Assembly (NCBI GenBank): GCA_964016885.1
Contig: OZ024745.1
Coordinates: 129,518,001-129,582,000 of the forward strand
Origin: Eledone cirrhosa
Taxonomy: Eukaryota
DNA length: 64,000 bases
Direction of reading: 5' to 3'
Both the position numbers and the translations under genes were made by a program. The notes below the pieces were generated by a model. It saw nothing but the letters and a program-made list of their open reading frames with translations, had not been told where the DNA came from and searched no databases. Of the stretch, positions 13,076 to 48,582 are shown piece by piece (position 1 is the stretch's first letter; each line of letters opens with the position of its first letter).

Positions 13076-13575
13076 ACTGTTCACCTGCCAAACTGTCAAA
13101 GCTAGTGAAAATATATGCTATTTTCAAAATACACAGTGACCGACTGGCCTGATATGCATATTAGCAGACTGGCTGATCAGTCAGATCTGCATATTAGGAG
13201 ATCCGCTGATCAGCCAGATTTGCATATCAGCAGACTGGCCAGTCAGTTTCCTGTATACGAGCGATAAATGGCCAAATTTGCCAAATTCAAATAAAAAAGA
13301 AAACTTAGCTCTACATGGCTGAATACAATAAATGTAATCTGAGTTTTTCGAATATTAATAACATTCGATTCGTTTGCAATTATGCAAACAAGCCTCAATT
13401 TTATAGCCATGTCAGTAGAATGAACACTTCATTCTTGTTGTTGTGTTAACATGCAAACAGAACTGCAGACACTAATGTTTCTAGGTATCACCTTCCATCA
13501 GTACAGCTCACTGTTCACCTGCCAGTCACTGTGTACTTTTGAAAATAGCATATATTTTCACTAGCTCTGACAGTT

Positions 13576-14027
13576 TATAGAAGATGGAAGTAGAAAGGCT
13601 GTGGTGAGAGTCATCGATAGATAGAGAGATATCAAGAAAAGGGACAGAAGAATCGGAGACAGAGGTGGTGAAGGTCAGACAGGAAGATTGAACAAAAGAA
13701 AGAAAGCAGTCGAGCTGTTTTCGTGATAGAGAGGTGGCGCCGATATAGTCGTCGATATAACGACCGTATAGCTCAGGAGTAGGTCCAGTGTACTGGGAGA
13801 AGATCTGAGGTTCGACGTCGCCACCAAACAAGTTGGCATAGTTTGGTCCCATTCTGATTCCCATCACTACCCCAGAGACCTGCTGATAGAATTCACCGGA
13901 AAATGAAACCCATTGATGGTCAAAACAAGCTCAGCCAGCCGGAGAAGAGTCGTAGTGCTGGAGTAAGGGGTAGGGCGTAAGTCTAAAAAGTGTCGGAGAG
14001 CGCAGAGGCCGTCATCATGAGGGATGA

Positions 14028-30990: not shown

Positions 30991-31600
30991 ATGGTGACTG
31001 CCAACTCGTTTTCGAGTACGGCCATTACTTTATATCCATGTAGGAGAACTCCTACCGATGCGCTGAACGAGTGTGACTTTTTAGTCCAGCCAGCGACTTG
31101 AAAACTCTGGTACAAACACTACACCTGTGACAATTATTGACACACAGTGTTGGGCCCATGGTACCATGTGACGACAAGTGCAGAGAGATCTCCAGATATA
31201 AAGCAATGCCTGTGCCGTGAAGCTTTTATAGTGAGCAAAGGCACTGCACAAAGCCAGTCCCACTCTCTTAACCAAGATGATATTTACCAAAAAGAAGAAC
31301 AAGTCAACATCATTGGATACCATCAGGTTTGCAGGTGTTATATCAGAGTTTTCCTTCTCCTAGAATTCTGCCTTGACAAAGGCTAAGGGGTCATCTCTCC
31401 CGGTGATTTTGGATGGTCATTGACTCTTAAGAGCTCCTTTGCCCTTTGACAGGTTTTGTTTTTAGTCCTGCAGGATGTCCAAAGTCACCCTCCTCACCAA
31501 GAAACCTTGGTGGGGTTGCCAGTTTAGTCGCCAACGACCCGACCATGGGACAGGTTGTACTGGAATACATGTTACCAGTAGCACCAACTGGTGACCTGAC
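30991..31600 (-). mobile_element. Non-coding dispersed repeat, RTE 5'-UTR-like
   Basis: Homologous to 47641-48582 and, inverted, to 58125-58220. The minus strand has CTAGGAGAAGGAAAACTCTG, a motif I associate with RTE-type leaders. Embedded in (TACA)n/(CA)n. Confidence 0.55.
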
Positions 31601-32040
31601 ACACATACATACACACGTACAAACACACACACATACACACACACATATACACACACATATACACACACATATACACATACACATACATATACACACATAC
31701 ACACACACATATACACATACATACACACATACACACACATACACACACACACAGACATACAAATACACACACATACCCACACACATACACATACACACAC
31801 ATACGCACACATACACACACGCATACACATACACACACATACACGTACACATACACGTACACATACACACACACACATACACACACACACACACAGACAT
31901 ACACACACATACACACATACAGACACACACACATACATAGACACACACACACACACACACATATATAAGTATATATATGTATATATATATTTATACACAC
32001 ATATATCTGTATATATATATATATATATATATATACACTC

Positions 32041-32091
32041 ACTTTTTCTCTTTTTTTTTAAAAACTCTTTTCTGACGTTTACAAATACCAG
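32041..32091 (+). promoter_or_regulatory. Putative splice acceptor of the large exon
   Basis: Pyrimidine tracts, a CTGAC branch-point-like motif at ~32072 and CAG ending at 32091. The frame is open from here to ACCATGG at 32124-32130. Confidence 0.5.
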
Positions 32092-32235
32092 TGTCTATTG
32101 TTTTGGTAACGTGTCAAACTGTTACCATGGCAGTCAAGCAACAACTTCAAGCTTTACAGAACAAAACGCAGCTACGCTGCGAATTCAAAGATTCAATACG
32201 AAAAAATTTGTTTAGAGCAGTAAAACTGCTAAACT

Positions 32236-34662
32236 ATGAAAACCCTAAAATCTGTGGATCTTGAAATCAGCAATGCTGTTACTAAGGATAACAGTTCGAC
32301 TGTTGCTAAGGAAATTAGCAGAATTGTCAACAAGGAAATAGGTAAGGCTGTTGCTACGACGGTTAGAAATGTAACACATCATGATATTTATTTCAAAGCT
32401 GCCAATTTAAATATTCCTTATGCAGTTTGTACGAATATTATTGAGTCAATTAACATCGAAATGGAAAACTTCTTACCTATAATAATTGATAGGCCTGTTA
32501 TTAAGCAAGTCAGCAGATATGTTGTCGAAATTATCCGCGAGTATGTAATTATTGACATCCAGCGTGCTATTGACTCAGAGATTGCCAACGATGTTATTAT
32601 AAAGCTTGGTGATGCAATCAAAAGAACTTACAGTACTCCAGTTTCAAAAAAGTTGAATGGTGCTCTTCTTCTGGAGATAAAAAAATGCTTTACCATGCAG
32701 ATTTGCAAAGCAATTGCTTTGAAAATAGGTGAAGCTCTCATAGTAGAAGTCTGTAATATCGTAACTGATGAGATTGATAAAGTGGTTGCAATACAGATTA
32801 ACAAAGCCGTAAAACAGATATTGAACAAGTCCGATATAACGTACTTATGCAGATTTGTAGCTAAAGATATTAAAGATATTGTGTCAGAATACATGTGCGA
32901 ATCTATTGACACGGAAACTGGGATATTATCACGTTTTCAAAGAACTAGCTGTGATATTTGCAAAGCAGTCAAGAAGACAATTCACAAAACTGTTGCCCTA
33001 GAAATTTACAGTGTTCTTACTAATGATATTAGCAAAGCAATCACCAAACATGTTCATGAAACTGCTATCGATATGATCAACGAAGATGTCATTTGTAACA
33101 TTAGCAAAATCGCTTCCACAGGTGTTTGCAATTTTATTGACAAAGAGACAATAGAAGCTGTGACATTAGATATCTGCGAAGCTATGAATGACGAGGTGAG
33201 CAAGGAGGTGATTGCTGAGATCAACAAATGTTCTTATATTTACGACAACCGCTACAATGACGCCGTTAAGTCTCTTAGTACTTATGTCAATAAAGCAATT
33301 GTCGAAACTGTATCCATGGAAATCGAGTGTGAAATCCACCAGAAAATCAAAGTGCTAGTTTCCGAAGGTGTGAGCGAGAATTTAATAAATGGCATCAACC
33401 TAACACATCTCATTAGCAATATCATCCTCCCCGACATCGTTACCAAAATAATACTGATAGATTTCCACAGTGATGTGGGGAGGCAGATCAAAAAAGCCGT
33501 TTTCATTGCAACTACTATATTTGAAGAAATACATGACGCCAGTGGCCTCGTATCGAAAAAGGATGTAATTGAAGTGAATGACAAACGGCTTTCAACGTCT
33601 CTCGGCAAAGACATAACATCGCGCATCGGGAGTGCTGTGTTCAACTTGATTGGTCACAACATTTGCATGGAAATCCAGAAGGATATCTCCATTGATATCA
33701 GCTTTGACTTTTTGAAGCATCTCAGCAACAATATTTGCCTGGATGTTATCCACGTGATTATTATGCGTATTTTCGAATTAAATGGCATAATAACGAATAA
33801 TGTTGTTGAAGAAATACTGAATCCCCAAATTATGGCAGAGGTCAACGATGTGGTTTTGAAAAGATTTTATGAATGTGTGAAGCTGGAAACAAAGAAGGAT
33901 GTCGGCCCGGACATCACTAAGCCGGCAGATCATAATATTGTTAAGTCCGTTTCTTCAAAGTTCCACGAAGTCTTGCAGGTAAATATCTCGAAGGAACTGA
34001 ATTTGAAAACCAAGCAGCCACAAAAGAAGTTGAAGACATCATTTCCCAATACGGTGGGCAAAAATGTGACTTTTGAAATCTGTAAAATGGTCACCAGAGA
34101 GATCAGTGAAACGATTGCTATCGATGTAACCGCTGCTGTGACTCAGGGCATCAATAAATCTATTACTTCGGAGATACACCAAGCCGTAATTAAAAAGATC
34201 AGTAAACATATTACCAAAGAAATCAACATGTCAGTTACTAACGATATCCAAAAAGCCGTATCATTGACGATTTTGAACAGGCGTGATATGGGCGAAGCCA
34301 CGGAGCTCACGAAAGCCATTTCAATCATGATCTGCAAAGCTGTCAACACAGGGATTAGTGAAGTAATCGCCAGAGAAATTAGCAGAGCTGTAACTTTTGA
34401 TATATGCAAATCTGTAATGAGAGAAATCAGCAATATAATATCTCTTCAAATTAGCAGAGCTGTTATTGTAGAGTTAAGCACTGCGGTCACGAATGAAATT
34501 AACAAAATTGTTACTACGGAACCTCAAAATAAGCCAGCACTAAATGTATGCGAGAATGTCATAAGAGACATCACCAATGCAATTTCATCAGCAATCATTG
34601 AATGTGGTACAATATCAAGCGTAAAGGAGAGTCTCATACAAATTATCGAAAGTGTCTCTTAG
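32236..34662 (+). CDS. Uncharacterised 808-aa Ile/Val-rich protein with 8-residue helical repeats (probably the core of a longer CDS)
   Basis: 2.4-kb stop-free ORF in complex sequence. Recurrent (E/D)I(S/N/C)KAVTx octads. No transposon domain recognised. Confidence 0.88.
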   Translation: MKTLKSVDLEISNAVTKDNSSTVAKEISRIVNKEIGKAVATTVRNVTHHDIYFKAANLNIPYAVCTNIIESINIEMENFLPIIIDRPVIKQVSRYVVEIIREYVIIDIQRAIDSEIANDVIIKLGDAIKRTYSTPVSKKLNGALLLEIKKCFTMQICKAIALKIGEALIVEVCNIVTDEIDKVVAIQINKAVKQILNKSDITYLCRFVAKDIKDIVSEYMCESIDTETGILSRFQRTSCDICKAVKKTIHKTVALEIYSVLTNDISKAITKHVHETAIDMINEDVICNISKIASTGVCNFIDKETIEAVTLDICEAMNDEVSKEVIAEINKCSYIYDNRYNDAVKSLSTYVNKAIVETVSMEIECEIHQKIKVLVSEGVSENLINGINLTHLISNIILPDIVTKIILIDFHSDVGRQIKKAVFIATTIFEEIHDASGLVSKKDVIEVNDKRLSTSLGKDITSRIGSAVFNLIGHNICMEIQKDISIDISFDFLKHLSNNICLDVIHVIIMRIFELNGIITNNVVEEILNPQIMAEVNDVVLKRFYECVKLETKKDVGPDITKPADHNIVKSVSSKFHEVLQVNISKELNLKTKQPQKKLKTSFPNTVGKNVTFEICKMVTREISETIAIDVTAAVTQGINKSITSEIHQAVIKKISKHITKEINMSVTNDIQKAVSLTILNRRDMGEATELTKAISIMICKAVNTGISEVIAREISRAVTFDICKSVMREISNIISLQISRAVIVELSTAVTNEINKIVTTEPQNKPALNVCENVIRDITNAISSAIIECGTISSVKESLIQIIESVS

Positions 34663-35035
34663 CCTACAATCAGGAGATATATTGGCAATATGTTCAACTA
34701 CAGACTTCTTGCTACTCAATTGAGAATACTTTCCAACGAATAAGCTTGAATGGTAAGGTTGTCCTTAAATATATTACAATATAGACACACAGACACAGAC
34801 ACAGACACACAGACACACACACACACTCACACACACAAACACACACACTCACGGACACACACACGCATATATATATTATATATATAATATATAATATTGC
34901 AGAAAAGTGCGGTTTATCTTAGTTGTTACGTAGTAACTTCCTGGTGATAAGAAGGTCCTAGCGTTCCAAAGCACTCCACGTCAGTAGTTTATCCCAGGTA
35001 GGTGATAATGAGTGACAGAGTATTTATTTATCAAA

Positions 35036-35216: not shown

Positions 35217-35414
35217 TATCAAATAATGGTAGTTAAGACAGGATTAAATCAGCATAATTGTTTATTGCATTATATATTTCTGTTACATGGTTATTCATGT
35301 GACTTTGTCAGATTCTTACGCAATCATTGGTTGTGCCGAACCACTTCACTACTGGATGGACATGCATGGTCACCGGCGTATCACAATGATTGCATAACTG
35401 CACCAATTTTTTCA

Positions 35415-47215: not shown

Positions 47216-47533
<318 letters not shown>

Positions 47534-47640
47534 CTACATACATACCTGCAGGTATACATACGTATATACAGACATACATACCTACATACATATATACATG
47601 TATACAAACCCACCTACCTACATACATACGTACATATATG

Positions 47641-48582
47641 GTGGCTGCCAACTCGTTTTCGAGTACGGCCACTACTTTATATCCATGTAGGAGAACCCCT
47701 ACCGATGCGCTGAACGAGTGTGACTTTTTAGTCCAGCCAGTGACTTGAAAACTCTGGTACAAACACTACACTTGTGACAATTATTGACACATAGTGCTGG
47801 GCCCATGGTACCATGTGACGACAAGTGCAGAGAGATCTCCAGATATAAAGCAATGCTTGTGCTGTGAAGCTTTTATAGTGAGCAAAGGTACTGCACAAAG
47901 CCAGTCCCACTCTCTTAACCAAGATGATACGTACATATATACATATATACATACAGGCATACATACACATATACCAACATACCTCCCTACATACATACAA
48001 ACATACATATATCCATATATACATACCTACGTACATGATGGCGGCCCCCTCTTTATCGAGTATGGCCATTGCACGATATACCATTATTAATTAATCCTAT
48101 CGTGCAATGCCTGTGCGTGAAGATTTTTTTAAAGTGAAGAAAGACTGTGCACTGAGCCAATCCCACTCTCTGAGCGACAGTAGCTATAACTCGAAAAGAT
48201 CAACATCATCGGTAACTACTGAGTTGCCTTCTCCTTGAAGAATGCACTGACAAATGCTAGGGGTCCTTCACTCTCAGTGGTTTAACCGGGCGATCGGGTG
48301 TCCAGCCGAATATTTCTATATTGCCGCGCATATACATACCCATGCATACATGCATATACACATATACATATATACATACATATGTACATGTGTATATACA
48401 TATTTACATATTTTTAGATGGCCGTTGACTGTTATGAGTTCTTCCGCCCTTTGTCAGGTTTCGCTTTTTGTCCTGCAGAGTATCCAAAAATCACCCTCCT
48501 CATCAAGTAAACTTGGTGGGGTTGCCGGTTTAGTCGCTGATGATCCGATCATGCGACAGGTTGTACAGGGTTACATGTTACC
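47641..48582 (-). mobile_element. Fragmented copies of the 30991-31600 repeat
   Basis: High similarity at 47641-47927 and 48415-48582, interrupted by (CATA)n. Confidence 0.7.

Follow-up and report, generated by a model that had tools for sequence, protein, structure and literature searches.

A single-copy frame in Eledone cirrhosa encodes a protein of diverged eight-residue Ile/Val repeats with a hydrophobic period of 4.0

The coding frame and its surroundings

We analysed a 64-kb window (64,000 nucleotides, numbered from its first letter) of the Eledone cirrhosa genome, which is 3.0 Gb in size; the window itself is rich in microsatellites. Its sole long complex frame lies on the forward strand, where an unbroken run of 808 codons starts at the ATG at 32236 and closes with a stop that ends at 34662, just as the preliminary description had placed it. 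The encoded protein (89.9 kDa, pI 6.2) lacks Trp, as was also noted there, and is composed of 16% Ile and 10% Val (26% together, 33% with Thr), with 2.6% Cys and about 3% Gly. The other five frames of the interval carry 18–93 stops, about 59 being expected at the same base composition, and the main frame carries none. An in-frame stop stands two codons 5′ of the ATG. At the N-terminus, hydropathy, used in place of a dedicated signal predictor, reveals no hydrophobic stretch of the kind that would suggest secretion, and a further coding exon upstream is possible. The features are collected in Table 1.

Table 1. Features of the octad gene, in window positions; residues are those of the 808-residue protein
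Feature	Position	Strand	Basis
Uninterrupted 808-aa coding frame, single copy	32236..34662	+	frame, contigs, stops, copy search
Upstream ATG in good initiation context; 45-codon frame overlapping the main start out of frame	32127..32264	+	ORF/context scan
N-terminal run of 4 octads, residues 10-41	32263..32358	+	octad profile
Residues 107-130, 155-194, 203-226, 240-271, 296-327: five diverged runs, each of 3-5 octads	32554..33216	+	octad profile
Residues 330-600 (middle region): high divergence, isolated octads, period of about 4.0 detectable	33223..34035	+	spectrum, profile
Residues 606-677: 9 octads without a register break (first long run); one helix predicted, 603-681	34051..34266	+	profile, model
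12-residue link between the 9-octad runs; predicted helix break 682-684, likely hairpin turn	34267..34302	+	profile, model
Residues 690-761: 9 octads (second long run); one helix predicted, 685-761	34303..34518	+	profile, model
Residues 770-785: final pair of octads, following a break that contains Pro; helix predicted at 766-787	34543..34590	+	profile, model

Three Logan contig sets cover positions 32040–34780 in one piece, with no differing letters and no gaps. These sets represent one sample and may be the source of the assembly itself, and they therefore test for assembly errors rather than for population variation. RAD reads from three samples numbered 10, 3, and 0 over the locus, too few to assess polymorphism, and no RNA run was present among the sequencing runs listed as containing the sequence. 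The unique 2.7-kb stretch that holds the gene occurs as one DNA copy in the genome, and the diverged middle part alone matched no other site at E 0.001. When the genome was searched with the protein, 96 matches other than the gene itself came up. DNA tandem repeats account for all 30 that were retrieved as loci and for 8 additional stretches covering more of the sites; the other matches, not retrieved singly, lie mostly inside the same arrays. The octad gene is single copy, without a paralogue among the genomic matches examined, and the lineage-specific family proposed earlier is not supported.

The short frame upstream begins in a better start context than that of the main ATG and is itself single copy. 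Judging from its position and context, it is possibly regulatory and could damp translation of the main protein. The upstream frame appears period-4 by eye, and a frameshifted N-terminus was considered; it was rejected, as the best two-octad score is −1.3 and the contigs carry no indel. At the other end, a strong donor-like site lies at 34753 on the forward strand, 91 bases past the stop, and poly(A)-like hexamers occur only at 35243 and 35446. Further donor-like sites are found inside the 808-codon frame.

No second octad frame is present within the surrounding 464 kb, where the only other score above 25 belongs to a Thr-rich simple repeat. The long complex frames in the 200 kb on each side resemble transposon pieces by eye, and a Pfam search of 241 shorter frames in the 464 kb (150 of 167 near, 91 of 274 far) returned a sub-threshold zinc finger, a transposase piece, and two weak matches that fall far short of the cut-off. 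A young dispersed repeat of 606 bp (30995–31600) lies about 640 bp 5′ of the gene and has 39 other full-length copies at 98–99%, counted among 40 scored out of 3,005 candidates. This repeat contains the sub-threshold C2H2 zinc-finger match (E 8e-5; minus strand, 31055–31225), and similar text appears again at about 47400–48500. The minus-strand frame at 13526–13930, which by eye we take to be a retroelement reverse-transcriptase fragment, has no Pfam match at E 0.01.

The octad, its history and its look-alikes

The preliminary description anticipated a Fourier peak near 4.0. The hydrophobicity spectrum of the whole protein indeed peaks at 3.99–4.05 with a power of 299, above all 200 shuffles (mean maximum 70, highest 157), and residues 610–770 peak at 4.00 with a power of 270, the highest of 200 shuffles being 110. 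The same period extends beyond this block: residues 50–330 peak at 4.02, again exceeding the highest of 200 shuffles, and residues 330–610 peak at 4.01, narrowly beating theirs (137 vs 110). With an octad profile started from the C-terminal block, 52 units cover 416 of the 808 residues at a score of 469, while 30 shuffles scored with the same profile average 13 and reach 35. The octads span residues 10 to 785, well outside the two blocks first listed. The five runs in the N-terminal half are set apart by register shifts or breaks, and the 19-mers of greatest hydrophobicity lie in the middle region (KD 1.7; highest 1.71).

What is the repeating unit? It had been described as a 4+4 repeat, of which the period of four and the eight-residue unit both stand. 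The halves, however, are not equivalent—none of 20,000 permutations matches the observed score—and the true unit is therefore 8 residues, not 4. Among the 18 contiguous C-terminal octads, Ile or Val occupies position 2 in 16 and position 6 in all 18 (34 of 36 sites), in line with the reported aliphatic residue at every fourth place, and the acidic residue at position 1 and Lys/Arg at position 4 that were also reported are found in 12 and 11 octads, respectively. Small residues fill positions 3, 5, and 7 in 13, 12, and 14 of the 18, and Ala stands at position 5 in 22 of the 52 octads. The reported frequent Cys at position 3 is weaker than claimed (3 of 18 C-terminal units, 11 of 52 overall), although 11 of the protein's 21 Cys residues do fall there.

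The pattern is maintained at the protein level while the DNA has diverged, as had been proposed. Among the 18 contiguous octads, identity at codon positions 1, 2, and 3 is 0.51, 0.61, and 0.35, pS is saturated at 0.76, and pN is 0.44; the saturation of third positions indicates that the gene is old. We simulated neutral decay by letting a tandem array decay at random to matching identity (0.491 simulated, 0.489 observed) in 300 runs. Decay produced 4.1 stops per 18 units and remained stop-free in only 3 of the 300 runs, against no stops in the observed frame. Aliphatic residues were retained at 61% of the core sites (highest 83%), against 100% observed, and the gap between position-2 and position-3 identity was 0.00 (highest 0.16), against 0.26 observed. 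Since neutral decay does not reproduce the codon-position pattern, selection acted on the octad protein during the history of the gene, which is not proof of its present expression. Over all 52 octads, pN is 0.29 at the core positions and 0.66 at position 8, a contrast that is partly circular because the profile itself selected these octads.

An old 24-bp tandem unit is the most likely origin of the gene. Where the same residue recurs at a distance of 8, 16, or 24, both places use one codon in 150 of 344 pairs, against 124.5 ± 8.4 expected; this mild excess may go back to ancient duplication of the DNA, or to codon context. The 12- and 24-bp satellites of the genome often read as similar octads, and the self-identity of their unit DNA is 0.77–0.99, as compared to 0.35–0.47 in the octad frame, where the third position is lowest. 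An origin from a present-day satellite was also considered and set aside, as seven satellite units share 2–5 of 8 third positions with the majority unit and give no clear signal. In one 24-bp minisatellite (L010, G000:C7:23772584-23772991), one frame reads as an octad much like that of the gene without any excess of third-position sharing, and such octads thus arise easily from 24-bp satellites in this genome. Another 24-bp satellite extends over more than 120 kb (L012, L014, L015, L020, L027, L032; G000:C1:421.31-421.44 Mb) and includes open frames that reach about 2,000 codons, a likely source of false gene calls.

We searched widely for relatives. Pfam has no match to the octad protein (best E 0.22) and NCBIfam none, PHROGs gave a single 23-residue match at E 0.044, and the PDB sequences gave none for the protein and four for the repeat profile, at E 0.1–0.5. 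A search of 5.8 billion proteins yielded no homologue among the matches listed at near, shorter, or longer lengths (7,993, 5,130, and 7,975 candidates scored). Two ESM Atlas queries returned no usable match (recognition 666), viral and metagenome contigs gave 5 and 55 pattern matches with none confirmed, and Foldseek found nothing at E 0.001 or better in the PDB and BFVD. The 12 phmmer matches among 1.84 billion proteins include none below 1e-10, and all are repeat look-alikes. These results agree with the earlier statement that the protein contains no known domain, and they reveal no full-length match to a characterised family. None of the searched protein sets returned the octad protein itself; coverage of the lineage is therefore incomplete, and missing homologues are weak evidence for youth. 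The lack of an orthologue despite the old-looking gene reflects either poorly covered or unannotated related genomes, or very fast evolution.

The phmmer matches, 10 of which were looked up, come from insects, crayfish, a fungus, abalone, fish, and unnamed records. In all 12, the hydrophobic period of the matched stretch is 3.93–4.01; eight are near-perfect repeats, and four are diverged and nearly Pro-free (P0004, P0010, P0012, P0013). The likeness, as in the Schistocerca KANK protein P0010 and the Mrr-type protein P0004, lies in the hydrophobic period only: the 18–30% identity is limited to the repeat, the flanking domains are unrelated, and the taxa are scattered. Judged by sequence, these look-alikes are analogous rather than homologous. 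The diverged period-4.0 stretches in unrelated proteins (4 of 12 matches) indicate that the pattern recurs. In Schistocerca KANK proteins (P0010, P0020–P0025), a stretch of about 175 residues lacks Pro and keeps the period of 4.0 in diverged form, which, together with P0004, P0012, and P0013, suggests a recurring and possibly undescribed helical motif. A published description of the octad protein or of long octad bundles was not found in the literature covered, which was mostly without subscription journals or supplements.

Predicted helices and their packing

How does the octad protein fold? A single-sequence model of the full length is all-helical and, at pLDDT 35, uninformative. AlphaFold2 modelled residues 600–788 with pLDDT 75 and pTM 0.39, from an alignment consisting of eight rows of the protein's own internal repeats rather than homologues, as the three helices in Table 1, without strands; Ile, Val, and Thr, a third of the protein, favour beta structure, which speaks against the helical reading. 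DSSP assigns ordinary helix to this model, in an output that lumps the helix types. From the helix ranges, the two equal 72-residue runs are predicted to fold back as a hairpin. The best fold match of VIA-align (Z 9.2, rmsd 5.2, 102 aligned) represents generic helical hairpins centred on the break at 682–684, and a Z below 13 is uninformative for helical bundles. A complex prediction with two copies of residues 600–788, run without an alignment and without folded controls, scored 0.01 against a mark of 0.32. The protein is predicted to be helical, as expected from the beginning, and a structural role is plausible; the label "structural" derives entirely from the repeat anatomy, which indicates no tissue or partner.

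The preliminary description had envisaged a long, strongly right-handed coiled-coil fibre or a lipid-surface-binding protein, and both ideas fared poorly. According to published theory (PMC4786415), coiled-coil periods span 3.33 to about 3.9, with 3.8 the most extreme seen and 4.0 inaccessible. The core period of the octad protein (3.99–4.05) fails this test for a Crick-type coiled coil. In an approximate Crick calculation for the 8/2 geometry, no solution exists at a core radius of 4.9 Å or more, and even a 3.5 Å core of the Gly type needs a bend radius of 21 Å. As for lipid, the amphipathic helices that lie on lipid surfaces (the 11/3 type) have their hydrophobic moment near 98–100°. In four blocks of the octad protein, the moment is 1.4–1.55 at 90°, 0.16–0.56 at 98°, and 0.14–0.26 at 100°, and with so small a moment at 100° the octad helices would not lie flat on lipid. 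Moreover, the largest radius that a period-4 stripe can face continuously is 4.3–5.2 Å, which also rules out flat lying.

How could such a stripe be buried? The reading that we favour, with somewhat less than even confidence, is that the single-copy gene encodes an intracellular structural protein in which the period-4.0 Ile/Val stripe drives steep right-handed helix packing. At 90° per residue, the octad would present four faces, with Ile/Val at positions 2 and 6, small residues at 3, 5, and 7, and Glu/Lys at 1, 4, and 8. The small residues would permit close approach of the helices, and the Glu/Lys residues would stabilise each helix through i,i+3 pairs. The stripe would wind once round an ordinary helix in 39 residues, and it can therefore be buried only in short segments, by strong local distortion, or with successive neighbours. 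We propose steep right-handed packing over short segments that would double back or contact one neighbour after another; such packing suits the interruptions after every 3–5 octads in the N-terminal half (runs of 24–40 residues). Contacts on all sides would then cross-link many chains into a dense intracellular fibre or scaffold, which the Cys at position 3 could lock if the cell product were oxidised.

The two 72-residue runs are hard to accommodate by short-segment packing, and they motivate other readings. In one, which seems to us unlikely, though the least so of those set against the favoured reading, the octad would be a fibrous helical motif not described before that makes two turns in eight residues, either alpha/pi or a supercoil beyond the accepted limit. 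Nearly the whole of this octopod structural protein would consist of the motif, which would have arisen independently in insect KANK and several bacterial proteins. Taken as an underwound helix, the octad would combine an alpha turn of about 3.6 residues with a pi-like turn of 4.4, and its straight stripe would assemble a long bundle without supercoiling. The sum of 8.0, the non-equivalent halves, the register kept unbroken across 72 residues twice, and the moment sharply centred on 90° all speak for this geometry, and in PMC6499831, pi-helices are tied to single-residue insertions in alpha-helices, with large aliphatics at their ends, which suits 8 as 7 + 1. The same paper describes canonical pi-helices as short and relatively unstable, however, and the commonness of Ala at position 5 and the ordinary helix assigned by DSSP, with helix types lumped, also count against it; we regard it as improbable. 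Improbable to the same degree is an unbroken two-stranded coiled coil or hairpin of extreme right-handedness, which would stretch the known range to 4.0. Small residues flank its core, a solution exists at radii below about 4.3–5.2 Å, and four-residue repeats lie in the helix of the Rpn dimer (10.1101/2023.05.02.539157). Against it stand the published limit (PMC4786415), the lack of any solution at 4.9 Å or more together with the tight bend demanded even by a 3.5 Å core, and the fact that the core here is Ile/Val, not Gly.

Three further readings—a spacer exon, a lipid coat, and a dead satellite—are less likely than our favoured packing of short segments. The frame could belong to a longer gene as a single large exon, or be a retrocopy that is no longer recognisable, and the repeat would then serve as a spacer or scaffold domain like that of insect KANK. 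The donor-like sites at 34753 and within the frame, and the occurrence of period-4 stretches inside multidomain proteins, agree with this; but the pattern fills residues 10–785, inside the limits set by the ATG and stop of the frame itself, the in-frame stop stands just upstream, the genome searches found no parent gene, and no domain of a cellular gene rose above cut-off in the 241 candidate frames of the surrounding 464 kb, a search that small exons would escape. We consider it improbable, to about the same degree as the two preceding geometries. A still smaller chance attaches to an amphipathic helix coating a lipid surface or droplet. The protein is amphipathic, Trp-free, and shows no signal by hydropathy, and one of the best-scoring folds is a phasin (Z 8.6, rmsd 9.9, 106 aligned), but such a Z carries no information for helical bundles, the moment is centred on 90° instead of 100°, and the stripe cannot continuously face a surface of radius above about 5 Å. 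Least probable of all is that the frame is what remains of a 24-bp minisatellite, or a gene that died recently, without function today. The octad-like reading of the 12- and 24-bp satellites and the lack of an orthologue in the searched protein sets would suit it, whereas the 808 codons free of stops, the codon-position pattern, the simulation, and a self-identity of at most 0.47 against 0.77–0.99 in satellites leave room only for a very recent loss of function.

Comparison with known systems

Coiled-coil theory bars a sustained hydrophobic period of 4.0, yet selection has kept this period through two runs of 72 residues whose core is bulky. At 160 residues, a fragment would be within reach of expression and structure determination, and would put the upper limit of supercoiling directly to the test or reveal another kind of helix packing. 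Among octopod structural materials, the octad protein would be a further candidate, with no relation to reflectins or suckerins, and its gene would illustrate growth from a short tandem unit where satellites abound in the genome.

The octad protein fails the coiled-coil period and lipid-helix moment tests, and it lies outside every family tested. With the right-handed coiled coils described in PMC4786415 and PMC8016460 (hendecad 11/3, pentadecad 15/4, YadA 19/5), it shares long predicted helices and a seam period above 3.63; here, in contrast, the period is 4.0 (8/2) over 72-residue runs, and no sequence or fold match links them. The four-amino-acid repeats of Rpn proteins (10.1101/2023.05.02.539157) likewise place one hydrophobic residue in every four within a self-contacting helix. 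The Rpn repeats occur in bacteria next to a nuclease, are low in number, and are charged or Gly-rich, whereas 52 diverged Ile/Val octads run throughout an animal protein in which Pfam and NCBIfam detect no Rpn nuclease domain. The glycine repeats of FliH/YscL also keep a strict period of 4 in helices proposed to dimerise, and their periodic residue is Gly, which allows close helix contact (PMC2674601). An interface of this type calls for Gly or Ala at every fourth place, and the octad protein has bulky Ile/Val at 34 of 36 sites. Among cephalopod genes, reflectins, suckerins, and histidine-rich beak proteins are likewise lineage-restricted and built from repeats; according to PMC9068888, these form clustered families, whereas the octad gene is single copy, without a Pfam match, and encodes an Ile/Val-rich protein that is predicted to be helical.
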